Notes: generated by a model from the sequence alone, not told the origin. Positions 25,622 to 51,335 are shown, counted from the stretch's first letter. The stretch is 52,353 nucleotides of DNA from Desulfobacterales bacterium (GCA_023129535.1 JAGMBW010000116.1:1-52353); one strand, 5' to 3'. Translations and numbers: made by a program.

Positions 25622-26521
25622 TCAATTTATAATTTTGTGGATCTGCCCCTTTCCCTTCACTATAAAGTACAAGCGAATCTTTTCAAGTTTTTTGCGGCCA
25701 ATTCCTTTTACTTTGAGCAAGTCATCGACGCTTTTGTAAGGCCGTCCAGCAATGATTCTCGCGGCAAGAACAGGGCCGATTCCTTTAATAGACTGGAGTT
25801 CCTTTTCAGTGGCGGTATTCAGGTCAAGCAAGCTTCGTGGGAGTTGGGCTTTTTTTACCTGGGTTTGTAGCTCCTGTAATTCGCGCTCTTCTCTGCGTTG
25901 TTTGTCGCGGAGCTCCACAATCCGATCCGGGTCACTCTCCGACCAAATGCCGGCACGTTTCAACATAGCCGAAATCTCCAGATCGTGGAGTCTTTCGAAT
26001 ATTTGGTTGCGCGGTATTCCATCGGGCGTTTTCCTGCCTACCCCATGAGTACGAGCCCAACCATTCTTGACGAGTAGACTTGCCAAATCATTTCCGTCGG
26101 CTGTGGTAATGAATCCATATACCCGGCCTTTTGACGACCTTCCCAATGCACTTGCGAAGGCCGTATGTAGAGTAAAAGATTTAGCAAGAATGCGCTGAAC
26201 GAAAGTTTTCGCCTCATTGCCGAAATGAATGGTGCGGGCCGCGTTGCATAATCCAAAATAGCGTGTTTGTTCCCGCACCCGGCGAGCATCGCTTTTGGAG
26301 CCAGTGGAGGTTTCGGGACAGTCAACAAAATAAAGTCTCACACGGAGTTGTTTTCCAGCAGCAACCACAAGGAAGCTATCACCATCGTTTTCAGGATTGT
26401 CCACCAGTTGAATGTTGGAAAACATTTGCAAATCAGCGGCAAATAATGGAAAAATACCACTAAACATCAATAGGGCTGTTGCGAATAAAAACGTGATGAC
26501 AAATTTTATGAATCTACTCAT
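25622..26521 (-). CDS. Exported staphylococcal-nuclease (SNase)-like nuclease fused to a ComEA-type helix-hairpin-helix DNA-binding domain
   Basis: N-terminal TM/signal. LRVRLYFVDCPE and KGRVYGFITTADGNDLASLLVKNGWA are SNase blocks. C-terminal LDLNTATEKELQSIKGIGPVLAARIIAGRPYKSVDDLLKVKGIGRKKLEKI is a ComEA-like (HhH)2. Confidence 0.7.
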   Translation of the reverse strand: MSRFIKFVITFLFATALLMFSGIFPLFAADLQMFSNIQLVDNPENDGDSFLVVAAGKQLRVRLYFVDCPETSTGSKSDARRVREQTRYFGLCNAARTIHFGNEAKTFVQRILAKSFTLHTAFASALGRSSKGRVYGFITTADGNDLASLLVKNGWARTHGVGRKTPDGIPRNQIFERLHDLEISAMLKRAGIWSESDPDRIVELRDKQRREERELQELQTQVKKAQLPRSLLDLNTATEKELQSIKGIGPVLAARIIAGRPYKSVDDLLKVKGIGRKKLEKIRLYFIVKGKGQIHKIIN

Positions 26522-27710: not shown

Positions 27711-28376
27711 TTACCTCTCTGAGTATACCAATAATATCTCAATCCTACGATTGGCCGCCTTCCCCTCCTCTGTGTCGTTGGGCATGATGTAATTATACTC
27801 ACCGTAACCGGCTGCGCCCAGGAATCTCTTATCGGACAGGGAAGGCAGCAAGATTTTGTGCTTCAGGAAATACTTGGTTATGTAAACTGCACGTGCTGTA
27901 GATAGCTCCCAGTTAGAAGGATAACGTTTTGAATAAATTGGAGTCGTGTCTGTGTGTCCTTCGATATAGATTTGATCAAACAACCTGTTTTCATAGTAAG
28001 TCCGGTGCAGTATTTCCCCTAAGGCGTCAAGGAATTTGAAGCTTTCCATTCTGTCGGGTGGGATTTCCGCCTTGCCCAAAGGAAACAACAAGGCACTGCT
28101 AAATCGCAACTTTTGGTGGTCGCCAATGGTTTCACACTGAATAGTATCCTTTGGTATCTTTCCTGTTGTCTCCATATCCTTAATCATTTGGACAAGGCGG
28201 CCCTGACGGTTCTTGATCTCGATTCTCTTTAGCGCATCACTAAGAAAAAAGCTTATGTGTTGTATAATCATGAAAAGTAGCAAAATCATCAGAGTGGCGA
28301 TGATGACATCAACCAGGGCCGGCCAGATATTCGGCATGGTGTTGCGGCTTTGATAGTATACATTTTTACGGTTCAT
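27711..28376 (-). CDS. MotB/OmpA-family stator subunit (ZorB-like)
   Basis: TM helix with a conserved Asp (IWPALVDVIIATLMILLLF). C-terminal OmpA-like peptidoglycan-binding domain IEGHTDTTP...NWELSTARA...NRRIEILL. The start is uncertain (TTG 28448, ATG 28376 or ATG 28337). Confidence 0.8.
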   Translation of the reverse strand: MNRKNVYYQSRNTMPNIWPALVDVIIATLMILLLFMIIQHISFFLSDALKRIEIKNRQGRLVQMIKDMETTGKIPKDTIQCETIGDHQKLRFSSALLFPLGKAEIPPDRMESFKFLDALGEILHRTYYENRLFDQIYIEGHTDTTPIYSKRYPSNWELSTARAVYITKYFLKHKILLPSLSDKRFLGAAGYGEYNYIMPNDTEEGKAANRRIEILLVYSER

Positions 28377-28423
28377 TGTTGAAATTTTTTGAAAGATAAC
28401 TAAGCATTTGGGGTCAAATGGTA

Positions 28424-30211
28424 TTAATAGCGTTTGAACGTAAACCAATTTAAAAAGGCCTTGAGTTTCCCTTTTTTCTCCACCTTAGATATCAAATTGG
28501 AATCAAAAGCATGACCCAATAAACTGAGTAAAGCCTGGTTAACTTCATTGGAATTTTTTAACGTGTTTTCGGTGTGTTTCAGCGTTTTTTCCATAACGGC
28601 AACGGAAGGAATGATTTTCTGGCTGAAAAAATCTCGCTGTTCTGAAGAAGCGGCTTCGAAACATTGCACAGTTCTTTCGATCAATTGTTCGCTGGATTGA
28701 TTATGGGCTTCGGTCTGATTCTCGATGGCCACTGTAAGTTTAGGCAGGACCTGTGAAAAAATATCATCCAGCTTGGTCGTAATCTTCGTGACCTGATTGT
28801 CGAATCGGGTTTCAAGACGGCCCTGTTGTGCGGCTATCTCCTCGCGTACACCCTCAAACCCTCGAGTGAGGTGGTCATTAAACACCTGATGGATCTCTTT
28901 TAACGAGTCCACGACCTTGACGTGTGATTCCGTAACAGCTTTCAGGTTTTCTATGTTAAGTTTTTGCTGGTCTTTGAGCATTGATTCGGTTTTATCCAGC
29001 AATTGTATCATTTTGTTGTTGGTATTGGTCAGAAAGCTGTTGTGATCCGCTTCTATACGCTGAATTTGTTGGTTCTGGAAATCAACCGCGTGAATGATAT
29101 TGCTCGAAGCCTCAAGCAGGCCTTCCTTAAAGTTTTTATCCATGTTTTGAATCGAAGTCTCTAGGCGGGCATATAGATTCTCTATTTCGCTTTTTTGCCC
29201 TCCCAACCCGTCAAATAGCTTTTCAATGGATGCCTGGCTGTTTTCCAAATGCCGTGCAAGGCCCTGCGAAAGTTTTACAAACGTCTCGTTTGCGTCAGAG
29301 ATCTTCAGGTAGTGGGCTTCAAGATCTGTCTGGGAGCGTGTGATCCCATCAACCGTGTGATAAAGCGTGTCGGCCATCCGGCTATGGACGTCCTGGTTGT
29401 CTGTAATCAGCGTCATGAGATCCGCGATACCGCTGGAGATTTCCACAAGTCCCGACCCGGACAGTTTCATCACATTTGCGATGGTGTCCAGACTGTCTTC
29501 CACTTTTTTGGGTGTAAAGAAAGGGATGAGAATATTCAGAGTAAAGCTCTCGAATTCCTCACCAAATGTTTCTTTGGCCCGCTCGTACACATGATTGACA
29601 AAGGAGAGCAGCAGGAATGCGAAAAAGCCGCACAAAGTGGAGGAAAATGCCGTTTCCATAAACCCCAGGCTGCCGAGCATATCTGAAATAATCCGCTGAA
29701 ATGCGTCGCGAGAAACCACACTGCCCATTCCCATCAGAATTCCACGCAGGTTGATGACCGCCTGGCTCAACCCCAGTATCGTCCCGATCAAACCGAGAAT
29801 GATCAAATTACCAGCAATATACCGGCCCCAGGATGAACGATATATATATGCCGCTTTTAGTGCGTCGGCAATAATCTCAACGTTCCCGTCCAGGCGTTTA
29901 ACCGCCTGTATGTCCTTGACCGCCTGTATGGTGAAACTTTTCCTGGAAAGCCCGGCATTCTCGATCTTGTCTAGCAACTCCCTGGGTTGTTGTTTGTCCG
30001 CCTCAAGAAATAGCTCGCGTATTTCCTTTAAGGCTCGGTTTTCTCGCCAGATCCGTATACGCCCCCAAACCACGATTAGGGTGCCTCCGGCAAAAAGAAG
30101 GATGATCAACCCGTTGACGATACAGGAAATAGCGGTACCGAAAAAGAAATGATATAGATATTCAGTCGGAATTTCCGGGTTGTCATTGAATAGCTGCAAC
30201 AAAAAATTCAT
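28424..30211 (-). CDS. MotA/ExbB/TolQ-family proton-channel protein with a ~350-aa C-terminal helical tail (ZorA-like architecture)
   Basis: TM helices flank LIILGLIGTILGLSQA (the GLxGTxxG channel motif) and LCGFFAFLLLSF. Residues ~240-595 are continuous heptad-like helix with no TM. Confidence 0.75.
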   Translation of the reverse strand: MNFLLQLFNDNPEIPTEYLYHFFFGTAISCIVNGLIILLFAGGTLIVVWGRIRIWRENRALKEIRELFLEADKQQPRELLDKIENAGLSRKSFTIQAVKDIQAVKRLDGNVEIIADALKAAYIYRSSWGRYIAGNLIILGLIGTILGLSQAVINLRGILMGMGSVVSRDAFQRIISDMLGSLGFMETAFSSTLCGFFAFLLLSFVNHVYERAKETFGEEFESFTLNILIPFFTPKKVEDSLDTIANVMKLSGSGLVEISSGIADLMTLITDNQDVHSRMADTLYHTVDGITRSQTDLEAHYLKISDANETFVKLSQGLARHLENSQASIEKLFDGLGGQKSEIENLYARLETSIQNMDKNFKEGLLEASSNIIHAVDFQNQQIQRIEADHNSFLTNTNNKMIQLLDKTESMLKDQQKLNIENLKAVTESHVKVVDSLKEIHQVFNDHLTRGFEGVREEIAAQQGRLETRFDNQVTKITTKLDDIFSQVLPKLTVAIENQTEAHNQSSEQLIERTVQCFEAASSEQRDFFSQKIIPSVAVMEKTLKHTENTLKNSNEVNQALLSLLGHAFDSNLISKVEKKGKLKAFLNWFTFKRY

Positions 30212-30394: not shown

Positions 30395-32191
30395 CTATAC
30401 TGATAAACCCTTTAGCTTATATTTATACAGAATTCGGAAAACAGACAGGACTCTGGGAGCCATCCAGACGCGCGCATCATAGGAAAGATCCGGCGTCCGG
30501 CTGCAGTTCATTTTAATGTGGATCCGATCCGAAATCCAGCGCGGCAGAAACCACATGGCCCTCACGTTGGGTGTATAAGACAATAAAACAGTTTCATCAG
30601 GAGAAAGACGCGGCAAACCGGATTTCCCCATTTGCCACAGCGTGTGTGCCCGGCTAAACTTGTTGTTTTCCCAACGTATGGAAAAAATACTCAGGGGCTC
30701 TGATCCCGTGTTTTTCAATCGGATCGTAAGGCAAGTACTTGTCCGGCTCCAGCACCACTTTCGGCTATCGAAAATGGAATCACATCTACTTTCGACAGTG
30801 CCGGCATGAACCGGGATCACATCTTTTATCACCAGTCCGTTATTCGCTCTGGCTCGGATCGTGATGGCTGTACTGATTGTTTTTCCGGGCGGCAAAGACT
30901 TTGATTCGAAAGTAAGCTGGGCTGCGTTAGGTGCCAGGATCGCCCCCGGGGCCACCACAATCCCCCTTAACGCCTCGGGAATGTCCACCTCGATATTGGA
31001 TACAGGCTGCATGGTATCGCTCTGGAAAAACTCCAATGTTTCCGTCTCCCGGCTTCCATAAGACACACGGCGCCAGTCAAGAGTCATTTTCCGGGGATAC
31101 CGGATCAAACGAACCAGATGCATTTTTACCTTCAGCCGGTGGCATCTGCGGTTGGCCACCCTGGAATCGGTCAAAATCAGGGCACTCAGGTTTTCAGCCT
31201 GAATGGGCCGCATTCTGGACGTATCGACACGCAGCGTAATTTGGTGTATTTGGCTTACCTTGATGTTCTTAATTTCTTCTTCATGTGAAATTCCGTTTCC
31301 GATACATTTCACTTTTAGCGTGCCGATCCCGTTCACGCTCAAGGGGATGACCAGTTTGAATGATTCACCCCATGACAAAGCCCGATCAACATTTATGGTA
31401 TTTTCTTTTAATTCCGAGCACACCAGATCACGGTTCCATACGAACTCCACCGGAATTTTTATCTCCCGCGTCTCTCCGTCTTCGCTTTTTAGCACCAGGA
31501 CCTCCATCTTATCCTGATCCGGCAGTTCCGGCCTTGAAACGGAAAAGCCCAGTTGAACCGGTCTGCCTGGTCGTATCTGAATGCTTTCAAAGTCCGGCAG
31601 GAGCCAGCCAGGGCAAGCGGCAACCCGATATTTTTTTAGCTCGATTGCTGATTTACGATGTCTGTCGTCCGGTTTGCCTCCGGGGAAAAACGTATAGTAT
31701 TCTTTCTGTGCCATGTTGGGATCGAATACTTGACAAACGCCTACGCCCGGAAGAACAGATATCGCTTCCCGTCGGTTATCGATGAGCGTTCGCTTCCCGT
31801 CGACGATTCTGTATACAAATTCCACTTCCGACTCGGTCAAGTCCATCCAGATTTGATAGGTTGCATCGGCCCCGGGCATCATTTCCCAGTTTTGGGAGAC
31901 GTCAGCCCCCCACCGGTTGAATTCTCCCTCTATTTTTGCAGAATGAAGCTCTTTTCTATCGATAACAAATTTATAAAAATGCTCTTGGCCAACCCGGATT
32001 CGAAACGGCGGCAATGGATCGAAATCCGTGTCCCCCCCTTCACGCCGGGCTTCATGTTCCACAAGTTGATAACAGGCGTTCTGATCTGTCAGTGCCAGCC
32101 GAGTACCCTCAACCTGTTGCCCTCCCCCGGCTTTCAGGGCCTGGGCAGCTTCCAAGTAAAGCCGTATGTGCTCTAATTTCGACAGGTCCAT
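30395..32191 (-). CDS. Cytoplasmic CBM48/AMPK-beta-like domain protein followed by several Ig-like beta-sandwich domains
   Basis: FRIRVGQEHFYKFVIDRKELHSAKIEGEFNRWG...WEMMPG..YQIWMDL..EFVYRIVDGKRTLID fits the GxFNxW..YKF.vDG pattern. No signal peptide. RBS AGGA. Confidence 0.5.
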   Translation of the reverse strand: MDLSKLEHIRLYLEAAQALKAGGGQQVEGTRLALTDQNACYQLVEHEARREGGDTDFDPLPPFRIRVGQEHFYKFVIDRKELHSAKIEGEFNRWGADVSQNWEMMPGADATYQIWMDLTESEVEFVYRIVDGKRTLIDNRREAISVLPGVGVCQVFDPNMAQKEYYTFFPGGKPDDRHRKSAIELKKYRVAACPGWLLPDFESIQIRPGRPVQLGFSVSRPELPDQDKMEVLVLKSEDGETREIKIPVEFVWNRDLVCSELKENTINVDRALSWGESFKLVIPLSVNGIGTLKVKCIGNGISHEEEIKNIKVSQIHQITLRVDTSRMRPIQAENLSALILTDSRVANRRCHRLKVKMHLVRLIRYPRKMTLDWRRVSYGSRETETLEFFQSDTMQPVSNIEVDIPEALRGIVVAPGAILAPNAAQLTFESKSLPPGKTISTAITIRARANNGLVIKDVIPVHAGTVESRCDSIFDSRKWCWSRTSTCLTIRLKNTGSEPLSIFSIRWENNKFSRAHTLWQMGKSGLPRLSPDETVLLSYTPNVRAMWFLPRWISDRIHIKMNCSRTPDLSYDARVWMAPRVLSVFRILYKYKLKGLSV

Positions 32192-32220: not shown

Positions 32221-33900
32221 TCAAATATGGTTAACGCGGACAAAGCATTTTCTGACCACTTTTCCGGTCCAGGTAATTTTATACCCCAGCTCCAGTACTT
32301 TTAAAATCATATGATCAGGATGCCGTGATTCATACCCTATGTCGAGCTCACAATGAACATCTGGGTCGAACTTCGACTTATATACTTCGGGTTCGATGGT
32401 CTGGATGCCGCAAAGGTCCAGCATGCGGGATCTGACCTGCTCAAGGTGATGCCTGTCAAATCCCCTGCCTTCGGCTTGCAATTTTTCATGCAATTGAAAT
32501 ATAGCATGAAAGGTCGAATCCAAAAAATGAAAAACCGAGTGAGCGACAAACTTTTCCAGATCGGGCCGCAGTTCATCCAAAGACGAATAGGCTTGAGACG
32601 AAAAACGATCAATCTTTTCAAGGTACCGGTCTTTGACCTTGTTAAGATACTTATCTGCGACCTCGCGGTAAAATACATCGGGGTCAGGCAATTCCAGATC
32701 GTCGCTCAAGGACAAGGATTCATCTGAAAAAATCTCAAAGCTCTCGAGATGGCTGTACACACTGGAAGCCTCAAGGGCAGATATGTCCTCTTTTAAAAAC
32801 GTATCAGGGTCCGAATATATTCGTTTACATATCGGCTTAATGTCTTGGAAAAGCGGTGTAAATAGGTCGATCATATCTTCTAATTCCTCTACGCTTCTGT
32901 CTTCCGGAAACAGGTTGTTACTCTCTTGAAACATAAACTTTTGAATTCCGTCATAAACCGGCATCAACTCTTTGAGTTCCAAGAGCTGTCTATCTCGTTC
33001 CTTGTTGTAATGATCCAATATCAGCTTTTCGAGGGTCCGGGTCTTAAACTCAACTAACGGCCAAACCGATTGCAAAAAGTCATCTTGTGGCGGGCGGGCC
33101 TTAGGGAAAAGTTCTTTTATTTTTTCATCTATATTCTCAGCAGCTTCTATTCTACGACTGAGCTCTATGTAATCTTTTTTAATTTGCCTTATATCTTCTC
33201 TAAAAGTATTATGTTGTTTTTCAAGAGACATGACAGAGAAATGATGTTGCTTTTCAAGGGACTTGATAGAGGTAGTAATTTCATCAATCTTTTTTGTTAG
33301 CGGTCTGGCGAAATCCTTTTTGAGATAAGAATCCTCTTTTAAATTTCGTAAAACATCAAGTACCGGAATGACCTGCTTCCATAGATTGTTTACTCTTTCG
33401 TTCAAGCTATCCTCTTTGTTCATCGATTCATCGAGGTCCCGGAGCTCTGATTGAAGCGCTTCGATTTTCTCATAGATATCATTTTGGAACATGTCGGAGG
33501 GGATAGATTTTACTGGTTTTTCCTCTTCAGGAGTGAAACGGAAACTGTCCGATTCTCGGAAGTTAATCGTTTTTCTAAAAAATATCTTTTCGAGCCCACC
33601 TCGTTGTCTTTGAAGTTCAATGTTCATCGTGTATAATTGGTCCGACGAAATGTTTTTTGGAAGCATGTATGTTTTTTCGCCATCTTTTTTTATTACAGAT
33701 GTCAGGTTGTTTAGGTCCATCTCTGGAAAATCAATTCTCAATATACGATCCGTCATCCCCGGTTTGGCTTTCCATTTGAAAATGAATTTGCGTCCCTTTT
33801 TTTCGACTACAAAAGACCGGATGTCTAGCTTTTCCAGGTTGGAGAGGTCATCTAAGTTTTGAGTATCAGGAGATTGTCTGTTATTTTTTTTGTGATCCAT
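32221..33900 (-). CDS. GrpE-like protein, paralog 1 (unique ~470-aa N-terminal region plus GrpE C-terminal beta-domain)
   Basis: C-terminus LDLCGIQTIEPEVYKSKFDPDVHCEL...ILKVLELGYKITWTGKVVRKCFVRVN follows the GrpE pattern G[VI]..I...G..FDP..H.A...V...GY...G..lR.A.V.V. Confidence 0.65.
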   Translation of the reverse strand: MDHKKNNRQSPDTQNLDDLSNLEKLDIRSFVVEKKGRKFIFKWKAKPGMTDRILRIDFPEMDLNNLTSVIKKDGEKTYMLPKNISSDQLYTMNIELQRQRGGLEKIFFRKTINFRESDSFRFTPEEEKPVKSIPSDMFQNDIYEKIEALQSELRDLDESMNKEDSLNERVNNLWKQVIPVLDVLRNLKEDSYLKKDFARPLTKKIDEITTSIKSLEKQHHFSVMSLEKQHNTFREDIRQIKKDYIELSRRIEAAENIDEKIKELFPKARPPQDDFLQSVWPLVEFKTRTLEKLILDHYNKERDRQLLELKELMPVYDGIQKFMFQESNNLFPEDRSVEELEDMIDLFTPLFQDIKPICKRIYSDPDTFLKEDISALEASSVYSHLESFEIFSDESLSLSDDLELPDPDVFYREVADKYLNKVKDRYLEKIDRFSSQAYSSLDELRPDLEKFVAHSVFHFLDSTFHAIFQLHEKLQAEGRGFDRHHLEQVRSRMLDLCGIQTIEPEVYKSKFDPDVHCELDIGYESRHPDHMILKVLELGYKITWTGKVVRKCFVRVNHI

Positions 33901-33926
33901 TGTATGCTATCAAAATCCTCTAATTA

Positions 33927-34069
33927 GTGCCTGAACGAAAACCGGTCAATTTCCTTACAAGTCCCCCTTTCGTAAAGGGGGATTTAGGGGGATTTCAATC
34001 GATTGCCAAAATCCCCCCCGGCCCCCCTTTTTCAAAGGGGGGAGATTTGGAGGGTTTTCGTTCAGGCAC
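33927..34069. mobile_element. 143-bp MITE-like element with 17-nt terminal inverted repeats and a TAATTA target-site duplication
   Basis: GTGCCTGAACGAAAACC...GGTTTTCGTTCAGGCAC, flanked by TAATTA (33921-33926 and 34070-34075). The paralogous spacer at 35842-35896 reads ..CTCTAATTATAAAGATAA.. uninterrupted, i.e. an empty site. Confidence 0.8.
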
Positions 34070-34182
34070 TAATTATAAAGATAACGCCTTGCTAATTGTA
34101 CCGGATACAATTCATCAAGATTTACTGTCGGTGGTGATAAGGCATGCAGGATTTGAAAAGTCTACTTCCACAAAGCAAATGA

Positions 34183-35841
34183 TTACCCGGTTGTATTATA
34201 ATTTACTTTAACACCACACTTTCTGAGCACCTTTCCGGTCCATTTAATTTGATACCCTGGCTCATGCTCATCTATTATTTTTAAAATGACGTGATCAGAA
34301 TACCGTGCTTCATTCCCCTGGTCGAGTTCTTTATGAACATCCGGGTCGAACTTCGACTTATATACTTCGGGTTCGATGGTCTGAATGCCGCAAAGCTCCA
34401 GCATGCGGGATCTGACCTGCTCAAGGTGATGCCTGTCAAATCCCCTGCCATTGGATTGCAATTTTTCATGCCATTGAAATATATCGTGAAAGGTCGAATC
34501 CAAAAAATGAAAAATTGAGTGAGCGACAATCTTTTCCAGATCGGGCCGCAGTTCATCCAAAGACGAATAGGCTTGAGACGAAAAATTATGCATTTTTTCA
34601 AGGTACCTTTTTTTGACCTCGTTAAGATACTTATCTGCGACCTCACGGTAGAACCTGTCGGGGTCCGGTATTTCCGTGTCGCTGCTCAAGGATTCTCCTG
34701 AAAAAATCTCAAAGCTCTTGAGATGGCTGTGCACACTGGAAGCCTCAAGGGCAGATATGTCCGCTTTTAAAAACGTATCAGGGTCCGAATATATTCGTTT
34801 ATATATCGGCTTAATGTCTTGGGCAAGCGGTGTAAATAGGTTGGTCATATCTTCTAATTCCTTTTTGCTTCTGTCTTCCGGAAGCAGCCTGTTGCTTTCT
34901 TGATCCAGAATTTGCTGAATTCCGTCATAAACCGGCATCAACTCTTTGAGTTCCAAGAGCTGTCTATCTCGTTCGTTGTTGTAATGATCCAATATCAGCT
35001 TTTCGAGGGTCCTAACCTTAAACTCAACTAACGGCCAAACCGATTGTAAAAAGTCTTCTTGCGGCGGGCGGGCCTTAGGGAAAAGTTCTTTTATTTTTTC
35101 ATCTATATTCTCAGCAGCTTCTATTCTATGACTGAGCTCTATGTAATCTTTTTTAATTTGCCTTACATCTTCTCTAAAAGTATTATGTTGTTTTTCAAGG
35201 GACTTGATAAAAGCATTAATGTTATGTATTTCTGTGTTACACTGTTCGGCGAAATCCTTCTTGAGATAAGAATCCTCTTGAAAATTTCGTAAAACATCAA
35301 GTACCGGACTGACCTTATTCCATAGATTGTTTACTCTTTCGTTCAGTCCCCCTTTTCCGTTCAGCAATTCATCGATATCTGTGATCTTTGATACAAGCGT
35401 TTCGATTTTCCCATGGGTATCATCTTGAGGCATGTCGGCGGTGGAAGATTTTACTGGTTTTTCCTCTTCAAAAGAGAAACGGAAACTTTTCGATTCTCGG
35501 AAGTTAATCGTTTTTCTAAAAAATACCTCTTTGAGCGCACCTCGTTTTCTTTGAAGTTCAATGTTCATCGTGTATAATTGGTCCGACGAAATGTTTTCCT
35601 CAGGCGTGAATGTGCTTTCGTCATCTTCAGCTATTAAAATATATTTCGGCTTTGGGCTTATCTCCGGGAAATCAATTCTCAACATACGATCCGTCATCCC
35701 CGATTTAGCTTTCCATTTGAAAATGAATTCACGTCCCTTTTTTTCGACTACAAAAGACTGGATGTCTATCTTTGCCAGGTTGGAGGGGTCATCTAAGTTT
35801 TGAGTATCAGGAGTTTGCCTGTTATTTTCTAGGAGATCCAT
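34183..35841 (-). CDS. GrpE-like protein, paralog 2
   Basis: About 80% aa identity to 32221..33900 over the full length. The same C-terminal GIQTIEPEVYKSKFDPDVH...GYQIKWTGKVLRKCGVKVN block. Confidence 0.65.
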   Translation of the reverse strand: MDLLENNRQTPDTQNLDDPSNLAKIDIQSFVVEKKGREFIFKWKAKSGMTDRMLRIDFPEISPKPKYILIAEDDESTFTPEENISSDQLYTMNIELQRKRGALKEVFFRKTINFRESKSFRFSFEEEKPVKSSTADMPQDDTHGKIETLVSKITDIDELLNGKGGLNERVNNLWNKVSPVLDVLRNFQEDSYLKKDFAEQCNTEIHNINAFIKSLEKQHNTFREDVRQIKKDYIELSHRIEAAENIDEKIKELFPKARPPQEDFLQSVWPLVEFKVRTLEKLILDHYNNERDRQLLELKELMPVYDGIQQILDQESNRLLPEDRSKKELEDMTNLFTPLAQDIKPIYKRIYSDPDTFLKADISALEASSVHSHLKSFEIFSGESLSSDTEIPDPDRFYREVADKYLNEVKKRYLEKMHNFSSQAYSSLDELRPDLEKIVAHSIFHFLDSTFHDIFQWHEKLQSNGRGFDRHHLEQVRSRMLELCGIQTIEPEVYKSKFDPDVHKELDQGNEARYSDHVILKIIDEHEPGYQIKWTGKVLRKCGVKVNYNTTG

Positions 35842-35896
35842 TGTGTGCTATCAAAATCCTCTAATTATAAAGATAATGCCATGCTAATTGTACCGG

Positions 35897-37396
35897 CTAC
35901 AGATCATCCAAATTAAACTTAATTTTCATCGGATCTTTTTTTTCTTCTGTCTTTGGAAGCGGCCCGTTTCTTTGTCGGCTGCTGGCTTTAGCGCTTTCGG
36001 AAACGGTGCGGTCGGATTTTTCCGGGGGCGATAATGCTGTTGCCGTAGATACCCTGTTTTGAAGAAACACGACTGCCTTCCTGACTTCCTCCACTCTTTC
36101 CAATACCGTCATAACCGCTGGGTCTTCTTTTTCGCCAATAACTAAAGTCTTACGGAGCTTCTGTGTTTTTTTGTCCAACCTATTAATATCTTCATTTAAT
36201 GCCTCCATCATTATTTTCTGGTTTTCCAATAGTGATTCAATTTTCTGGTTACCAGTTGAAGTGTCTCCAACTGAATCCAGGATGTGTCTAAAGTTTTCAG
36301 ACTGTGTCTCTAAATCTCTCAATACAGAATTTATATTAGAAGGTATATGCTGGTTCAATTGTTCAGAAACCTTTCTGATTATATCATCACGGTATCGTGA
36401 TAGATTATTCCTGCTATCGCTTTCATGTTTTCGGAAGGCGAAAAAAATCTGAAGGATAATAAAAAGAAACACTACTCCTAAAATGATTACTACTCCTAAA
36501 AGTAGTCGCACCGTTAAAAATGATGTCGTACCGCCATTTGGGGAAAATCCAGAAGTCTTGTTCTTCAAGCTTTCTATTTCAGATTTAATATCATCAATTT
36601 TTTTGGGCAGATCTTGTGCAAACTTTTCATCAATAGTTGACTTCAAGCTTGTAATGCTTTTGGACAAAGTGTCTGGTTTTGTCGCAAGGGCAGTGCGCTC
36701 AATATCAATGTTTTCTTCTTTCTTAACAATTTCAGTGGTAAGCGACTTGCCTTTTCCTGGGGATCGGATTATTCTTTTAAATTTATCAGGTAATGCGCTG
36801 ATAATATCACTTGCCGGCAATTCATTTTCTTCCGCTGAAGTTACACGAACCTTTGTTAATTTATCTTGAATGCCCAGTTTCCTGACATTAATTATAAAAA
36901 ACCATCTCTTATTCAACTCAAAAAGGGTTCCATGGTGGCCTTCAATATACTCAAAAAGTTTACACCATGTTTTATCTCTCCAATCGCCATCAACATCAGC
37001 AGTTCCTATTGCCCTCTGTAAAGCCTTTATGTTGTCTTCATTGACAACAGAACCGATCAGTGCAGATTTTAAATTTTTAATTCCATTTTCATCTTTCGAC
37101 TTAACTTTTTTACTTGGACTTGTAATATAAAACTTCACTGCTACTTCTAAATCAGGAGGGCCATTCTTGAACCCGTTAAGGATGTTAATAATCCGGTACT
37201 CCTTAGCATCGAAGGACTCCTTGTCTAGTTGAAACGCATCGTACAAAAGCAATTTGACTTCCTCGCTGTTATCGGCGCATATAGCTTTGAATAGATACAA
37301 TAGAAAAAAAAGGCATATAACGATCGTCAACAGTAACAGAAAATTGATTCGTTTATGCCTCATAGATCTTCGCTGCCTTTGAAATTGCATATCCAT
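35897..37396 (-). CDS. Bitopic/two-TM membrane protein with a PG_binding_1-like motif and a coiled-coil C-terminus
   Basis: Start taken at ATG 37396 (MDMQFQRQRR). TM1 INFLLLLTIVICLFFLLYLF and TM2 LLLGVVIILGVVFLFIILQIFFAF. Between them, IKALQRAIGTADVDGDWRDKTWCKLFEY resembles the LQ..L...vDG.fG..T peptidoglycan-binding motif. Confidence 0.55.
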   Translation of the reverse strand: MDMQFQRQRRSMRHKRINFLLLLTIVICLFFLLYLFKAICADNSEEVKLLLYDAFQLDKESFDAKEYRIINILNGFKNGPPDLEVAVKFYITSPSKKVKSKDENGIKNLKSALIGSVVNEDNIKALQRAIGTADVDGDWRDKTWCKLFEYIEGHHGTLFELNKRWFFIINVRKLGIQDKLTKVRVTSAEENELPASDIISALPDKFKRIIRSPGKGKSLTTEIVKKEENIDIERTALATKPDTLSKSITSLKSTIDEKFAQDLPKKIDDIKSEIESLKNKTSGFSPNGGTTSFLTVRLLLGVVIILGVVFLFIILQIFFAFRKHESDSRNNLSRYRDDIIRKVSEQLNQHIPSNINSVLRDLETQSENFRHILDSVGDTSTGNQKIESLLENQKIMMEALNEDINRLDKKTQKLRKTLVIGEKEDPAVMTVLERVEEVRKAVVFLQNRVSTATALSPPEKSDRTVSESAKASSRQRNGPLPKTEEKKDPMKIKFNLDDL

Positions 37397-37460
37397 AGCT
37401 GTGTTTATTTCCTTCACTTTTAATGCTTGATCATAAAGCTTCACTGAATTCGTCCCCAGT

Positions 37461-38555
37461 TCAATGGTAAAGTCTCGGCAAAGGGAACTCAACCACATGA
37501 GCAATTACAAGGCCTTGGTTTACCACTGCAAACCGAGCCTTTGCCAGACCATAATCCACTTTTTGGATATTGAGTTGCAAGTTACAGGGATTCTGCCGTT
37601 TGAACCCTTTTTCATCCAGGGAGGCAGTAAACCTTGCCATCGGAAAAAAACGCCCCTTATCTTTGAACCAGCAAGCCAAAGGGACGTCAAGATGTCGCGC
37701 GTCATCGAGTATGTCAAATACCTGTATCATGCTTTTGCCCGGCAGATCCGAAGGACCCAAAAGCGGGAAAAAATCATTCTCACCGGCGATCAGGCCCAGT
37801 GTTGTCTCCATGTTGAAATCCACCCGTGGCATGTCTCGCCGATTCATATACTCCTGAAAGTAGAAGTAACCTGAAGCGGCAGGGGTGTGCTGCGAATGGT
37901 TAGGCAAATCGAGAGGGTCGGTATCTGATAATGCCTGCCATCCAACCAGTCTGGCCTCCAATCTGTTGGGTCTCTTGATGACGGAAAATCGGAAAGCGCT
38001 TCCCGTGTTGGACGACGTTTTGATGGTAACGGCTATGGAGTCTGTTTCAGGCAAATCGATGATCTGTATCAGCCTTTGGGATTCAAACAGTTTTCTGAAA
38101 AATAATGCGAATGCCTCCGTGCACACTTCCACGACACAGCCGGGCAAGACCGTTGCCAGGGCGCGGATAATAGCCCGGCTTGCCTGTGGTTCCCATGCCA
38201 TGGGAACAAGACATACCATGGGCATTGACAGACGCAATCGGCTGAAAATTTGATTATTTTTCTTAAAAAAGAATCGCCAGATCGTTTCAAGCAGTTCATT
38301 CTCCCCGGCAATAAGCGGCATGATATGGTGGAATTGATGCAAACTAAACGTCTCATCCTCTTCAAGCTGATTTTCGTAAAACTGTCGATGCTCCGGGCTC
38401 TCTTTGCCGTTCGCTTCCGGTTTCAGGATGACATGAAACGGGACAGAAGCGGTCTGGTCGTATTCACTGCCACCATCAGTATAAACTGCCATCTCTTCGC
38501 CCGTTAAATCCAAAACCGCTGACGGGCGATAGTAATTAACCATGCCTTTTTGCAT
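37461..38555 (-). CDS. Hypothetical protein (~365 aa), translationally overlapped with the kinase-Hsp70 gene
   Basis: The track ORF runs to 38837, but its first ~94 aa overlap the upstream gene in another frame. ATG 38555 (MQKGMVNYYRPSAVLDLTGEEMAVY) gives a 20-nt overlap. Family not recognised. Confidence 0.55.
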   Translation of the reverse strand: MQKGMVNYYRPSAVLDLTGEEMAVYTDGGSEYDQTASVPFHVILKPEANGKESPEHRQFYENQLEEDETFSLHQFHHIMPLIAGENELLETIWRFFFKKNNQIFSRLRLSMPMVCLVPMAWEPQASRAIIRALATVLPGCVVEVCTEAFALFFRKLFESQRLIQIIDLPETDSIAVTIKTSSNTGSAFRFSVIKRPNRLEARLVGWQALSDTDPLDLPNHSQHTPAASGYFYFQEYMNRRDMPRVDFNMETTLGLIAGENDFFPLLGPSDLPGKSMIQVFDILDDARHLDVPLACWFKDKGRFFPMARFTASLDEKGFKRQNPCNLQLNIQKVDYGLAKARFAVVNQGLVIAHVVEFPLPRLYH

Positions 38556-41500
38556 CGATCCACACACCGTAAATTTGAACCCGCAGCCGAAGCTCAAAAT
38601 CCTTGGTAATCGCCATCCTAATAATACCCTGAACGTGTTTTTCGTCACAGCAGTCAGGCTTGGAAACGTCATACCGACCGACCTCCACGCACTTTGTATC
38701 GCTATACTCATCGTCACGGCCCGTATGTTCATAGACAATGATCTTCCACAACAACTTTCCGTCATTATCAAAATCAAAGTTCCGCACCCTTTCAGCGACG
38801 GCGTATGTTTGGGGATCAATAACCTTGCTTTTTTCAAATGCTTCCGTACTTACAAACCGTCTGTTCCTGGCAATCCATTCCACAAATCTTGTTTTGCTGC
38901 CGCCGACAGGTTTGGTCGTACCGATACGCCACCAATTCTTTCCGGATATGCTCCGGATGTCGATTTTTTGTTCGCCTGTCTGGATCCCGGCTATTTCTTC
39001 GGAACGATACAGGGCCGCACCCAATGCCACACCGGCTTTGGGCCGATCGGCAAATATGAGCTGGTCGTAGTCAAGCGACGTAGAGCTGGTTGGGTCATCA
39101 CGGAAAATCACTTCTTGTTTCTCATCACTCCACACGGGACGCTTCCCCTCTTTGAAAGCCTCAAACATTTGCTTTACCAGCGGAATTTTTGAAGATCTGC
39201 CTGAAAGGAGGATATGGCGGGGGGAACTTTCTGTTTCACTGTTGTTGTTATCGAGATCGAACATGGTTTGAATCATTGATACGCTCTCCTCGATTCGGGT
39301 AAAAATACAGCGCCGGATTTCGCTTCGCCTGATAGAAACAGGGGCGCTCCGCCGGTCTTCAATAAGGCCATTCACAAGGTTTTCATATTGGAGCAGAAAG
39401 GTGGCAGTCACCTCTTTTTGTTCTTTTTCCGGGCTAAAAAGTTCATCTGTTTTAATCTGTTCACAGCGACCCATCAGGATTCGAGCATTGGAGCCAGCTT
39501 GCCGCTCATGAACGGTAACGGTCCGACGCCCTGGTTCCGGCGGGAGTAAGGGCATATCGTCGTTTTTCTCGAATGACCCAATCACAATATTTCGTATTTC
39601 CCTCGTAACATCATCACCGCCGAAATCCTGCATACCGTCCACATCCAACACCTCGATTTTGATAAAGTTGCTAAGTTCATTATGGATGACCTGAAGGTAA
39701 GTAATATCAATAGTTCCGCCCCCAAAATCGTATACCAGCAAGCGATAGGCGCCCTGATTTTGGTAAATATGATGCAGCGCTGCCGCCGTGGCTTCGTCAA
39801 TCAGGGAATATCTGGACCTGTCAATGCCTGCCATTTTCAGAATGCGTCGGAGTGCCCGGACCCTGAGAAGCGTTAATTTGCTGGGATGGGTAAAAACATA
39901 GGCCGGAAAGGTCAGGCCCAGTTTCGCGCTGATTTGGGAAATTAAACGCTTTAAATAGTCCGCAATCATGTTCTCAACCGGAATTCTTTGGGTCCCTCCC
40001 CGAGGCAAAAAAACAAGTTCCGACTTTCTCCGATTTCCCAATTGACTTTTTAAAGAAGTAAAAGCATTCGGTTCGCCCGCGATCAAGTTGTAACTTGGTT
40101 GCCTCCCAATTTCGTAATCCTGAATTTTAAAAAAATATTGGATCACACTGGGGATAACCCGATCCTTTGGGCTGTTGTAAAGATCCAGCTCCAAAGGTTT
40201 GCTCCGGTCGGCTACACTCCGATAAGCAACGCAGTAACTGTACGTGGTGCCAAAATCGATGGCGCAAACATAGCCTTCTTCATGAGACAGAAGGGTAACC
40301 GTCAAATGCCGGACAAGCTTTTTAGGATGCCAACGACCATCCCTGAACACGTCATATTTGAAGATCAGGTTAAAGTTCATGTCGATTAGTTCCTGATCAT
40401 TTGCATCATCCTGATTTGTCTGCCAATTATCTATTGGATGAATGGTGTATTTCAAAGCAATTGGACGCCCGCTGCCGCCATCGAGAATGTCGTCGGAATC
40501 GACTTGATCGAACTCGATGACAGCGGAAAAATCGACTTCCGGATCACTACAGCTTTCGGCGACTGCTTCGATTTCCCTTATCCGCAACTTCCCTCCGCCT
40601 CCGTTGATCACGCTGAGGGATTTTCCCACGGGATCGTTTTGCTGATATAACCTGATGTGAATCGGACCGCGTTGGGGAAAAACAACCAGCCGCGGGGGAT
40701 TAATCATTTGCAGTTTGAATTCGTGGTCCAAAAAATAGGTATTGACTGGAAGCGGCTTTTTCCGGTTTTTCAGATACAAGAGCAATGTCAGATTGTAAGG
40801 TTGGTTTTCTTTGAGATGCTTGGTGTTAATCGACATCTGAACCGGCACCGATCCGGTTGTGCGGTCCAGCGTAATGTGCTCAACAGGGGTTTTGACTTGA
40901 ACACCTGCTGTCAGAAGTTCTTCGAGTCTGGCCTCGATTTTCTCTATAACAGCTTTACTGTTCAATAGTTCGAGATTTACCTGAAAATCGGCAAACTGGT
41001 TTTCGGGATCGAATTCTACTTCTATTAATCCTGGGGTAGCATCGAAACGGGGAACCGGCAAAAGCTCCACTGTGAGGGGCTCATCACAATCTTTGAAGGC
41101 CACATTGAATATCAACCCTGTGCGTTTTAACTTCTGATAATCAGGATGGCGCGAGGGTGTCACCTCCAGATAGAATTGCTGTGATTCGTTAACCGCCAAG
41201 GATTGAGGAAGGGGCGTGTGTCGAAGCCACTCATTCTGGACCACCCAATTTATATCATCCTCTTGCACGAACGTCAACCCGCATCCGGGATGCACACAGA
41301 CAAGGGCATTGTATTCGTTCAGGTGATCATTTGAGCACCGTTTTACAAATTCGGCTTCTTGAATATCTCTTGCCAGTTTTTCAACCGTGCGTATTCGCTG
41401 ATCGCAATTTTTTCTGAGGCAGCCGTCCAGAATCCGATTCAGTGTTGCCGGAAGGCCTTCGATACGGTTTCGGCTGACACCGTCGATGGTGATGTTGCCT

Positions 41501-42267
41501 AGCGTGTTTTCAACGGTTTTCCCCTTATAGGGGTGTTCCCCTCGCATGAATTGATACATCATAACGCCCAGTGACCATATATCCACCCACGTTCCAATGC
41601 TGCCGGTATGCCTCACGATTTGTTCGGGAGCAGCCCACACCGGTGCCATTAGAATGTCATTGTCCATACCGGGCGATAGATCATTTCCGTGAAATTCGAT
41701 CAGGGCGGGGACAGCAAGCTTTATCTTTTCGTCATCACCAATAAGAAGGTTTTGAGGCTTCAAATCGCCATGAATAATGGCATTGGAATTGCCGTCCGTG
41801 TCCATATGGCCATGCAAAGTAGCCAACCCGTCGCATATCTGAAGCAGCAGCCCTTTTAACTCTTCTCCCGGTACCACATCGTTGACGATATGTCCGTCGG
41901 CTGCGTGAAAATTATACTTGTCTGCAATAGAACCGTTTTCAAAATAGTCTGTGATTACACAGAAAAATTTGGCGTATTCCGTTTCTTCAACGAACCAGTC
42001 CAACGGGATGACAAGATGATTGGAATTCATGGTGGAAAGGGCTTCAAGCTTTTTCTCGATCATTTTGATTTGATGAGGAGCCGAATCGTCAGGCGAGAGC
42101 CCGGTCATTTTGACGGCATAGATTTCATCCGGTTTTTGTGTTTTCTCCACTTTGAAAGCGGGTCCGCGGCCGTCTTCTCCGATGGCATCAAGAATATGGT
42201 ATTCCTGTTTGTTGATCCATTTTCCGGAAAATATATAACCCAGGCCGTTGATTTTTCCCTCTTCCAT
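38536..42267 (-). CDS. Fusion protein: Ser/Thr-kinase-like domain + beta-rich middle region + Hsp70/actin-fold ATPase domain (no canonical Hsp70 substrate-binding domain)
   Basis: Kinase motifs: IGEDGRGPAF, YAVKM, IIHGDLKPQN, WAAPEQ, DIWSLGVMMY. Hsp70 NBD motifs: CAIDFGTTYSYCVAY, LIDEATAAAL, LLVYDFGGGTIDITYLQV, DFGGDDVTREI, ILLSGRSSKIPLVKQ, DRPKAGVALGAALY. ATG 42267 follows AGAGGA; the track start at 42288 is a TTG. Confidence 0.85.
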   Translation of the reverse strand: MEEGKINGLGYIFSGKWINKQEYHILDAIGEDGRGPAFKVEKTQKPDEIYAVKMTGLSPDDSAPHQIKMIEKKLEALSTMNSNHLVIPLDWFVEETEYAKFFCVITDYFENGSIADKYNFHAADGHIVNDVVPGEELKGLLLQICDGLATLHGHMDTDGNSNAIIHGDLKPQNLLIGDDEKIKLAVPALIEFHGNDLSPGMDNDILMAPVWAAPEQIVRHTGSIGTWVDIWSLGVMMYQFMRGEHPYKGKTVENTLGNITIDGVSRNRIEGLPATLNRILDGCLRKNCDQRIRTVEKLARDIQEAEFVKRCSNDHLNEYNALVCVHPGCGLTFVQEDDINWVVQNEWLRHTPLPQSLAVNESQQFYLEVTPSRHPDYQKLKRTGLIFNVAFKDCDEPLTVELLPVPRFDATPGLIEVEFDPENQFADFQVNLELLNSKAVIEKIEARLEELLTAGVQVKTPVEHITLDRTTGSVPVQMSINTKHLKENQPYNLTLLLYLKNRKKPLPVNTYFLDHEFKLQMINPPRLVVFPQRGPIHIRLYQQNDPVGKSLSVINGGGGKLRIREIEAVAESCSDPEVDFSAVIEFDQVDSDDILDGGSGRPIALKYTIHPIDNWQTNQDDANDQELIDMNFNLIFKYDVFRDGRWHPKKLVRHLTVTLLSHEEGYVCAIDFGTTYSYCVAYRSVADRSKPLELDLYNSPKDRVIPSVIQYFFKIQDYEIGRQPSYNLIAGEPNAFTSLKSQLGNRRKSELVFLPRGGTQRIPVENMIADYLKRLISQISAKLGLTFPAYVFTHPSKLTLLRVRALRRILKMAGIDRSRYSLIDEATAAALHHIYQNQGAYRLLVYDFGGGTIDITYLQVIHNELSNFIKIEVLDVDGMQDFGGDDVTREIRNIVIGSFEKNDDMPLLPPEPGRRTVTVHERQAGSNARILMGRCEQIKTDELFSPEKEQKEVTATFLLQYENLVNGLIEDRRSAPVSIRRSEIRRCIFTRIEESVSMIQTMFDLDNNNSETESSPRHILLSGRSSKIPLVKQMFEAFKEGKRPVWSDEKQEVIFRDDPTSSTSLDYDQLIFADRPKAGVALGAALYRSEEIAGIQTGEQKIDIRSISGKNWWRIGTTKPVGGSKTRFVEWIARNRRFVSTEAFEKSKVIDPQTYAVAERVRNFDFDNDGKLLWKIIVYEHTGRDDEYSDTKCVEVGRYDVSKPDCCDEKHVQGIIRMAITKDFELRLRVQIYGVWIDAKRHG

Positions 42268-42439
42268 TCTATTTGATCCTCTACGCAAATTTATAACAAC
42301 CGAAGTGAGGCAGCAGCTCCCTCCTGCTGCAGGGGTGCAGTCCGATTACCCGCTCATTCTTTAAATATGTAACCATAAAATGACGCCATCACGGCCGGTT
42401 CCTGGTTCAAGGGAAAAGCTTAGGTTGGCGATTTTAGTC

Positions 42440-47223: not shown

Positions 47224-47580
47224 TTAACCGCCCAAAAGCCAAAACGCCATATAAGTGACACCGAGAGCGATGATGAAAGATATTATGCCCGAAACGACTC
47301 TAGGTCCCTGTCCCCATGAACTCTCATAAGCCGCTTTGGGGCCCAAGGTGCCTTGTCTAACCACCCTGGTAAATCTCATGGTCCTCACTCGAAAACAGAT
47401 ATAAAAAGCAAACAAGCCCAAAAGAACACCGACGACTATGGCGACTGTCAAGTTGACAGGGCTCGGGTTGCTGAAGTCTACCACGGCTTCCACGATGCCG
47501 GCGCATGCTAAGAAAAATGTAAGGAAGCTGCCTATACCGACTGCCCAACTCATGCTAGATGGTGCATTGTTAAAATTCAT
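47224..47580 (-). CDS. Small three-TM membrane protein
   Basis: ATG 47580 overlaps the upstream stop (ATGA coupling). Hydrophobic helices WAVGIGSFLTFFLACAGIV, LTVAIVVGVLLGLFAFYICF and VVSGIISFIIALGVTYMAFWLL. Confidence 0.6.
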   Translation of the reverse strand: MNFNNAPSSMSWAVGIGSFLTFFLACAGIVEAVVDFSNPSPVNLTVAIVVGVLLGLFAFYICFRVRTMRFTRVVRQGTLGPKAAYESSWGQGPRVVSGIISFIIALGVTYMAFWLLGG

Positions 47581-48953: not shown

Positions 48954-48988
48954 GAACGACGGCCTCCAGTCGTAAAAGCGTACAGTTA

Positions 48989-51253: not shown

Positions 51254-51335
51254 ATTCACACCCACCTACTATGCGACAAATGTTGACGGTGTCTGTCCCC
51301 CCAACAAGTAACCAAATATTGTATTAGTCATAAAA

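Follow-up and report, generated by a model that had tools for sequence, protein, structure and literature searches.

Tandem GrpE-like genes with variable N-terminal regions in a tubulin-, Hsp70- and ZorAB-like operon of a Desulfobacterales bacterium

GrpE is normally encoded by a single, slowly evolving housekeeping gene. Here we describe two tandem GrpE-like genes in a 52,353 nt stretch of DNA from a Desulfobacterales bacterium (GCA_023129535.1 JAGMBW010000116.1:1-52353; the whole stretch is called the window below), which lie in an operon with genes for Hsp70-like, tubulin-like and ZorAB-like proteins (Table 1). The encoded proteins resemble canonical GrpE in their homologous core of two bundle helices and a six-stranded beta-domain, recognised by both profile and fold, and in the presence of a gene for an Hsp70-type ATPase nearby. 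They differ from it in length (~550 instead of ~200 amino acids (aa), with an unrelated 400-aa N-terminal part), in occurring as one to three fast-evolving tandem copies, in having a kinase-like/Hsp70 fusion and not DnaK as the presumed partner, and in forming a very rare family. We consider it somewhat probable that their task is to serve the operon's own Hsp70-like ATPase, as exchange factors or adaptors dedicated to it.

Dedicated Hsp70 and GrpE genes are known from the NTPase-centred gene sets of the GAP1-N2 double-GTPase conflict systems, some of which carry a second Hsp70 without a peptide-binding domain, while sister systems hold tubulin homologues, vWA proteins, kinases and variable beta-sandwich (FNIII) modules (Kaur, Burroughs, Iyer & Aravind 2020, PMC7159879). 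These DO-GTPase/GAP1 systems are described mainly from Actinobacteria and Firmicutes, and their tubulin and Hsp70/GrpE themes are said not to overlap (PMC7159879), whereas at the present locus tubulin and Hsp70/GrpE co-occur, together with a ZorAB-like pair, in the Desulfobacterota. No DO-GTPase/GAP1 family match was found in any window protein scanned, and the zinc-ribbon protein (47577-48953) has no P-loop recognisable by eye. A second related arrangement is the FtsZl1 operon, in which Tubulin_2/FtsZl1 genes are accompanied by vWA, OmpA-family, Ser/Thr-kinase and lineage-specific membrane protein genes, and for which a role in membrane remodelling was proposed (Makarova & Koonin 2010, PMC2875224); that paper has no mention of Hsp70, DnaK, GrpE or MotA-type proteins. 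The present locus has a corresponding Tubulin_2 gene, weak vWA matches and an OmpA-family gene, and the same linkage is found in three related loci (L001, L002 and L010; other loci and homologous proteins are likewise given as L and P numbers).

The likeness to Zorya lies in a MotA-like protein that bears a long helical tail and, next to it, a peptidoglycan anchor of the MotB/OmpA type. Unlike Zorya, the ZorA match is weak, MotB/MotD models score equally to ZorB, and the accompanying genes are of the Hsp70/GrpE/tubulin type; a PADLOC scan of eight operon proteins, beginning with the kinase/Hsp70 fusion and ending with the ZorB-like protein, gave no match to ZorC, ZorD, ZorE, ZorF or ZorG. In the mitochondrial import motor (mtHsp70, Tim44 and Mge1/GrpEL1) a membrane Hsp70 is held by an anchor and cycled by a GrpE-type factor; this is a functional analogy only, as the anchor proteins are not known to be homologous and nothing at the present locus points to protein translocation; GrpEL1 is among the fold matches described below. 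Full-text literature searches found no paper describing Zorya/ZorAB with tubulin, GrpE and Hsp70, or GrpE in anti-phage defence. The operon is an undescribed combination of known modules.

Table 1. Features of the window in and around the GrpE-like genes, in operon order
Feature	Position (nt)	Strand	Remarks
vWA protein (758 aa), zinc-ribbon protein (458 aa), small membrane protein (121 aa)	47224-51265	-	weak Pfam VWA_2/VWA and zinc-ribbon matches
Tubulin/FtsZ-like protein, 1253 aa	43404-47165	-	Pfam Tubulin_2 (FtsZl1) 6.8e-37; head of the gene order
IS200/IS605-type Y1 transposase TnpA, 144 aa	42560-42994	+	between tubulin-like and Hsp70 fusion genes
Kinase-like/Hsp70 fusion, 1250 aa	38536-42288	-	Pfam Pkinase 3e-27, HSP70 2.9e-12; NCBIfam DnaK, HscA
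~360-aa protein	37461-38543	-	start overlaps stop of Hsp70 fusion; AlphaFold2 model Hsp70-like
Membrane coiled-coil protein	35897-37504	-	two hydrophobic segments, C-terminal coiled coil; up to 535 aa
Upstream GrpE-like paralog (A-type)	34183-35841	-	intact ORF, 552 aa; Pfam GrpE
GrpE core, upstream paralog	34201-34662	-	preceding helix, two bundle helices and beta-domain; AlphaFold2, Foldseek, profile
MITE-like palindrome, 143 bp	33927-34069		17-bp terminal inverted repeats GTGCCTGAACGAAAACC, TAATTA flanks
Downstream GrpE-like paralog	32221-33900	-	intact ORF, 559 aa; Pfam GrpE; mosaic
Imperfect internal repeat SLEKQH-HFSVM-SLEKQH	33211-33261	-	33-nt insertion; indel-prone coiled-coil spot
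GrpE core, downstream paralog	32230-32682	-	aa ~407-557; alignments
598-aa protein	30395-32191	-	29 nt downstream of the GrpE-like pair; no family match
ZorA-like (595-aa ORF) and ZorB-like (245-aa ORF) pair	27711-30211	-	PADLOC ZorA3 1.9e-5, ZorB1 1e-22

GrpE core and N-terminal region

That both proteins end in a GrpE-like block had been proposed from the sequence, and this was borne out. The Pfam GrpE family (PF01025, curated gathering cut-off 25.8 bits) is matched significantly by the 552-aa copy with 31.9 bits (profile positions 34-164, aa 410-547) and by the 559-aa copy with 30.8 bits, and also by 29/43 remote relatives scanned (best E 4.5e-44). A family profile cropped to the C-terminal part matches the solved GrpE structures 4ANI_A (E 2.4e-10, residues 70-212) and 1DKG_A (E 6.7e-6); GrpE was found with the cropped profile only, the full-length family profile giving just coiled-coil noise against the PDB sequences. 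An AlphaFold2 (AF2) model of the 552-aa paralog, made with an alignment of 49 sequences, has a mean predicted local distance difference test (pLDDT) score of 81, rising to >95 over aa 394-547, where helices at aa 394-423, 428-462 and 470-483 are followed by six strands up to aa 547. The predicted fold agrees with GrpE, as the best PDB match of the model in Foldseek is GrpE 9a81_A (from a GrpE-DnaK model, E 2.6e-4), with human GrpEL1 (9bls_C) near the top of the matches, while a Foldseek comparison with viral structures gave nothing meaningful (TM-scores of at most 0.14 on the query). The beta-domain had thus been recognised correctly, but the extent of the block had not: homology also spans the helical bundle and covers ~150 aa, not 80, and the preceding region, which is indeed unrelated to GrpE, is ~390-400 aa long and not ~470 aa. 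The C-terminus is a true but divergent GrpE homologue of ~150 aa, comprising helices and beta-domain. No other part of the protein is as well conserved or modelled with as much confidence, and in the GrpE cores of relatives that are 22-30% identical an H and a G never vary, with I, F, V and N almost invariant; the tail of the downstream paralog, RKCFVRVNHI, differs from the family consensus RKCGVKVNYN.

Upstream of the GrpE core, the AF2 model of the 552-aa copy contains a beta-sandwich (aa 20-123), a poorly ordered linker, very long helices (aa 142-253) and a helical domain (aa 261-375). The fold matches of the beta-sandwich in Foldseek are C2, FN3 and CBM21 domains, and two homologues (P0005 and P0006) cleanly lack this part. 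Neither a signal peptide nor a membrane segment was apparent in the GrpE-like proteins when their sequences were read by eye without a predictor.

Copy number, history and rate of evolution

The original prediction of tandem paralogs with ~80% identity came close, with both ORFs exact and 419/561 residues identical (75%, BLASTP) between the 552-aa and 559-aa proteins. At the DNA level, identity is 86% across 1638 nt (codon alignment), and homology far exceeds chance: positions 32246-33926 align to 34217-35867, and the similarity extends into the 5' leader (34069-34100 corresponding to 35861-35892), which means that the duplicated unit takes in the ribosome-binding region. As had also been noticed, the identity is patchy. 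In the codon alignment the copies are most alike at ~aa 221-320 (95-97% DNA identity) and divergent at ~aa 41-100 (73%), at ~aa 121-180 (78%) and in the final 40 codons (73%); the N-terminus is not near-identical as had been thought, since the first 60 aa are ~80% identical. The internal duplication reported in one paralog is real: an 18-nt unit is present twice in the 559-aa copy (tcccttgaaaagcaacat and tctcttgaaaaacaacat, 16/18 identical, 15-nt spacer), which amounts to a 33-nt insertion relative to the 552-aa copy, and homologue P0004 has a different small duplication at this position. The leader of the downstream paralog also contains an element resembling a miniature inverted-repeat transposable element (MITE), which is missing from the otherwise identical upstream leader. 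The window has two oppositely oriented copies of the 17-mer of its terminal repeats (0 expected), and this 17-mer is also found in >116 stretches, mostly from Desulfobacterota genomes; the hairpin formed by the intergenic RNA with this element is very stable (-106.5 kcal/mol, z = -7) and could affect expression of the downstream genes.

An exhaustive HMMER search found only 49 relatives among 1.84 billion cluster representatives, with mainly the last 120-160 residues shared. Among 5.8 billion clusters there are only seven close relatives (63-100% identical to the query), and none was found in the GTDB species genomes scanned for close relatives of the GrpE-like protein. All loci read with sufficient flanking sequence show the family within this operon. 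The gene order of the window is repeated in the loci of close relatives (L001, L002/L003 and L007), and also in L004, L005, L006, L008 and L010, where the GrpE domain is just 22-31% identical to that of the window. There are three GrpE-like copies in L006, two in the window, L004, L010 and L001, one in L002 and L008, and apparently one in L005, the second copy of L001 being frameshifted, with an internal deletion and without the coiled coil. From a tree of the C-terminal domains, tandem multiplication took place independently in three lineages. Identity between copies is 81% in the window clade, 35-39% in the L004/L006 clade, and in L010 86% within the GrpE domain but 49% over the full length; at such low identity the L004/L006 paralogs must be old and retained.

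Within the window clade, the upstream copy groups with P0005, P0006 and P0007, and, by locus, with those copies of L001 and L002 that are upstream or single (the locus of P0007 was not read). A second lineage is made up of the downstream copies of L001 and L007. The downstream copy of the window shares features of both. Sliding windows show it to be 94-98% identical to its tandem neighbour at nt 640-940, and at nt 1120-1300 92-94% identical to the downstream copies of L007 and L001 against 80-84% to the neighbour. Codon-level windows along the two genes gave synonymous divergence (dS) ranging from ~0 to 0.66, and ratios of nonsynonymous to synonymous divergence (dN/dS) of 0.2-0.4 in the core regions and 0.76 overall; ratios >1 were found in windows of the beta-sandwich and linker, which hold very few synonymous changes and are no test of positive selection. 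Such mosaic identities and varying dS point to an older duplication with gene conversion. Judged from these alignments, the duplication is older than the separation of these populations, and gene conversion has made the copies partly uniform, the downstream one combining 'B-type' stretches with others converted from the upstream copy. We therefore reject a recent duplication followed by localised diversification, as originally proposed: the copies belong to lineages common to other metagenomes, and the downstream copy is a mosaic.

Rates were compared between the window, L001, L002 and L007, for which the operon genes mostly have dS values of 0.07-0.17. Five of the six neighbouring genes evolve slowly (dN 0.013-0.054, dN/dS 0.13-0.44), among them those for the Hsp70 fusion, the ~360-aa protein, the 598-aa protein and the ZorA-like protein (89-97% aa identity). 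The GrpE-like genes have dN 0.10-0.18, dN/dS 0.5-0.75 and 69-80% aa identity, and their protein evolution is 3-8x faster than that of most neighbours; the exception among the neighbours is the membrane coiled-coil gene (dN 0.09-0.29, dN/dS 0.4-0.8, 59-83% aa identity). The GrpE-like genes and the adjacent membrane gene form a variable island within a conserved operon.

With an overall dN/dS of this size, a single copy in L002, a frameshifted and internally deleted second copy in L001, and a downstream copy that departs from the family consensus in its last strands, the pair might be taken for a redundant duplicate of which one copy is decaying, the patchy divergence then reflecting relaxed constraint without functional meaning. 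We consider this very improbable, as both ORFs are intact over >550 codons with constrained core regions, the B-type lineage has been kept in other loci, and two or three copies recur independently in distant lineages, in which paralogs of 35-39% identity have long been retained.

Hsp70-like neighbours and the role of the GrpE-like proteins

The Hsp70 fusion gene ends 2.7 kb upstream of the GrpE-like genes, which is the distance given in the original prediction, but the Hsp70 nucleotide-binding domain (NBD) is not the orphan it had been called: it occupies residues ~676-1110 of a 1250-aa protein, in which it is preceded by a protein-kinase-like domain at the start (aa 30-303) and a beta-rich middle part, and followed by a 140-aa beta-rich tail. 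The match to Pfam HSP70 (46 bits) covers the first half of the NBD. The NBD motifs DFGTT(N/Y)S and DFGGGTID are present in 5/5 loci checked, and an adenosine motif of the ILLSGRSSKIP type in 4/5, the locus where it was not found being L010; the window has DFGTTYS, DFGGGTID and ILLSGRSSKIP. Going by these motifs, the presumed partner of the GrpE-like proteins looks competent. In the kinase-like domain (41299-42288, minus strand) DFG is replaced by AVP, or by VVP or DVD in homologues, and other catalytic variants are HGN for HGD in L008 and D for the catalytic-loop N in L001. From these residues the kinase-like domain is probably inactive, a pseudokinase.

The ~360-aa protein encoded next to the fusion gave no Pfam match above noise (best E 0.24, VanZ), no PDB sequence match and no PADLOC or NCBIfam family, and its own family has just five other clusters among 5.8 billion. 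Its AF2 model, from an alignment of six sequences, has a pLDDT of 75 and a predicted template modelling (pTM) score of 0.75, and the best 50 PDB matches of this model are all full-length Hsp70, DnaK or BiP structures, with E-values down to 2.8e-8. It thus looks like a miniature, sequence-degenerate Hsp70, and, going by the model, the operon seems to carry two Hsp70-derived proteins. For the 140-aa tail of the fusion, which by motif resemblance was a candidate for an SBD-beta-like part (SBD, substrate-binding domain), a PDB profile search and a profile-profile comparison with the miniature Hsp70 found nothing.

The order Hsp70 fusion, ~360-aa protein, membrane protein and GrpE-like protein is found in the window, L001, L002, L006 and L008. 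In L010 the order from Hsp70 fusion to GrpE-like gene is kept with different small genes interposed, and L004 has a matching order, with a first gene that is truncated at the end of the contig and was not checked for being an Hsp70. An Hsp70-like gene is located upstream in 6/6 loci with an identifiable upstream gene that were read (the window, L001, L002, L006, L008 and L010). The suggestion that the pair encodes dedicated exchange or adaptor factors fits this synteny with Hsp70-like genes, which is conserved in close and distant relatives alike.

For the way in which the GrpE-like proteins would act, we infer physical binding, exchange activity, dimerisation, an N-terminal partner and a biological role of the system along the following lines. 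Both genes would encode cytoplasmic, modular GrpE-family proteins that serve the operon's Hsp70-like ATPase and not general folding. The C-terminal GrpE core would dock on the NBD of the 1250-aa kinase-like/Hsp70 fusion and promote or gate ADP/ATP exchange, like GrpE with DnaK, while the ~400-aa N-terminal part would dimerise the protein and tether it to a variable ligand or to further components of the machine. The likeliest local partner of the N-terminal part would be the adjoining, equally variable membrane coiled-coil protein, and with two or more copies the same constant GrpE module would be available with alternative adaptor specificities, or with heterodimeric ones. A constant core with a variable adaptor agrees with the identities in L010 (high in the GrpE domain, low over the full length), with the missing beta-sandwich of P0005 and P0006, with the three independent multiplications and with the fast evolution of the GrpE-like genes.

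The presumed contact positions are mixed in their bearing on such a role. At the positions aligned to E. coli GrpE P151, I157, M174, R183 and V192 in the beta-domain the family has P, L, L/I, K and V, all conserved or conservatively replaced, which speaks for it, whereas the helical positions aligned to K82, F86, R104 and E107 are not conserved, which speaks against it; we take both sets to be DnaK contacts, for which a literature search gave no confirmation. Several other observations weigh against such a role. The classical GrpE signature, a PROSITE-type pattern checked on E. coli GrpE only, fails in 48/49 members including both window proteins, the sole match (P0053) being a canonical-looking 192-aa GrpE; in the family the conserved His is followed by Glu in place of Ala and the conserved Arg by Lys in place of Pro/Ala, and two residues are inserted. 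No substrate-binding domain is recognisable by sequence in the Hsp70 fusion, and with such an atypical partner, fused to an inactive-looking kinase and without a recognisable domain of this kind, the classical chaperone cycle may be inapplicable. The dN/dS of 0.76 between the copies could partly be due to relaxed constraint rather than diversifying selection, and the single copy in L002 together with the frameshifted second copy in L001 indicates that the second copy is dispensable.

The retained positions in the beta-domain, along with the high divergence of the operon Hsp70 as seen in its partial, 46-bit match to Pfam HSP70, would also suit GrpE-like proteins that recruit the housekeeping DnaK to a membrane complex through their N-terminal part, bypassing the operon Hsp70. 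We think this decidedly unlikely, since an Hsp70-like gene adjoins the family in all six loci in which an identifiable upstream gene was read, while the failure of the canonical signature and the lack of the helical contact residues are as expected if the GrpE-like core co-evolved with a different NBD. The same divergence at the signature and at several contact positions could instead mean that the GrpE-like domain has lost exchange activity and is only a dimerisation or scaffold module for coiled-coil adaptors of the tubulin/ZorAB-like machine, and the inactive-looking kinase-like domain next door indicates that degenerate domains do occur in this operon. This too is unlikely, as the GrpE core is the part of the protein that is best conserved and most confidently modelled, keeps near-invariant residues across relatives of 22-30% identity, and is accompanied by an NBD that retains its ATP-binding motifs. 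Each of these explanations, decay of one copy included, fits the synteny, the core conservation or the multi-copy recurrence less well than a role as dedicated exchange factors or adaptors.

The wider operon and its possible role

The genes from 51265 to 27711 are all on the minus strand with the exception of the IS200-type transposase, and the cluster consists of ~11 genes from the vWA gene to the ZorB-like gene. The tubulin-like gene is at the same position in L001, L002, L008 and L010. Where the window has the transposase, L001 has a 77-aa ORF and L002 two small ORFs and a PIN-domain gene, and this gap between the tubulin-like and Hsp70 fusion genes may be an insertion hot spot. The membrane coiled-coil gene is the most variable of the operon, with products of 308, 478 and up to 535 aa in three close loci and only weak coiled-coil-type family matches, and its protein may co-vary with the GrpE-like proteins. 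The 598-aa protein is exactly 598 aa long in L001, L002 and L007 as well (91-96% identical, dN/dS ~0.3); it has no Pfam, PADLOC or NCBIfam family and no BLASTP similarity to the Hsp70 fusion or the vWA protein.

The ZorA-like protein is of the MotA type with a long helical tail (Pfam MotA_ExbB E 0.069), and the ZorB-like protein is a MotB/OmpA-type peptidoglycan-binding protein (Pfam OmpA 1.9e-10), for which the NCBIfam MotD/MotB matches are of similar strength to ZorB. The ZorB-like protein (27711-28448, minus strand) is just 71-72% identical to those of L001, L002 and L007, with dS saturated, against 93-97% for the adjacent ZorA-like gene, which suggests that the 3' end of the operon has a recombination breakpoint or has undergone allele replacement. 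Located ~1.2 kb downstream of the ZorB-like gene (25622-26521, minus strand) is a gene for a staphylococcal-nuclease and ComEA-like helix-hairpin-helix protein, the N-terminus of which is hydrophobic by eye and possibly a signal peptide. Otherwise the flanks consist of ordinary chromosomal genes: metE, lpxC, comM and a sigma-54 two-component pair. In two of the distant loci the operon genes are followed by other types of genes: toxin-antitoxin-type pairs (DUF433/DUF5615 and DUF4160/DUF2442) come directly after the two GrpE-like genes in L010 (13849-15115), and a 1685-aa RHS/YD-shell protein, which may be a toxin-type effector linked to this operon type, is encoded after the OmpA-like gene in L005 (8301-13358).

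Taken as a unit, these genes would specify a membrane-anchored assembly of FtsZl1, one or more vWA proteins, a split Hsp70 pair and a ZorAB-like stator. It probably serves as a regulated system of the conflict or defence type, or else remodels the envelope. A more specific version, which is possible but which we hold to be doubtful, is that the GrpE-like proteins act as hypervariable subunits that give specificity to a membrane-anchored machine of an immune type not described so far. The variable N-terminal modules would then sense an invader or envelope signal together with the membrane coiled-coil protein, the constant GrpE core would change the nucleotide state of a split Hsp70 that has no lid and is fused to a pseudokinase, and this Hsp70 switch would control FtsZl1 assembly, powered or anchored by the ZorAB-like stator. 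If so, evolution would have made a diversifying sensor out of a nucleotide exchange factor.

This is an unusual arrangement that lends itself to testing, and its function is what we infer. In contrast to the housekeeping GrpE, the GrpE core is here fused to large variable modules, and the resulting proteins are the fastest-evolving soluble part of an otherwise conserved operon. The 'FtsZl1 operon' of 2010 and the ZorAB-like stators thereby gain a concrete, testable set of partners. If the GrpE-like proteins do act as dedicated exchange factors or adaptors, the Hsp70/GrpE nucleotide switch would be detachable from protein folding and reused as a regulatory switch in a membrane-bound tubulin/stator system.

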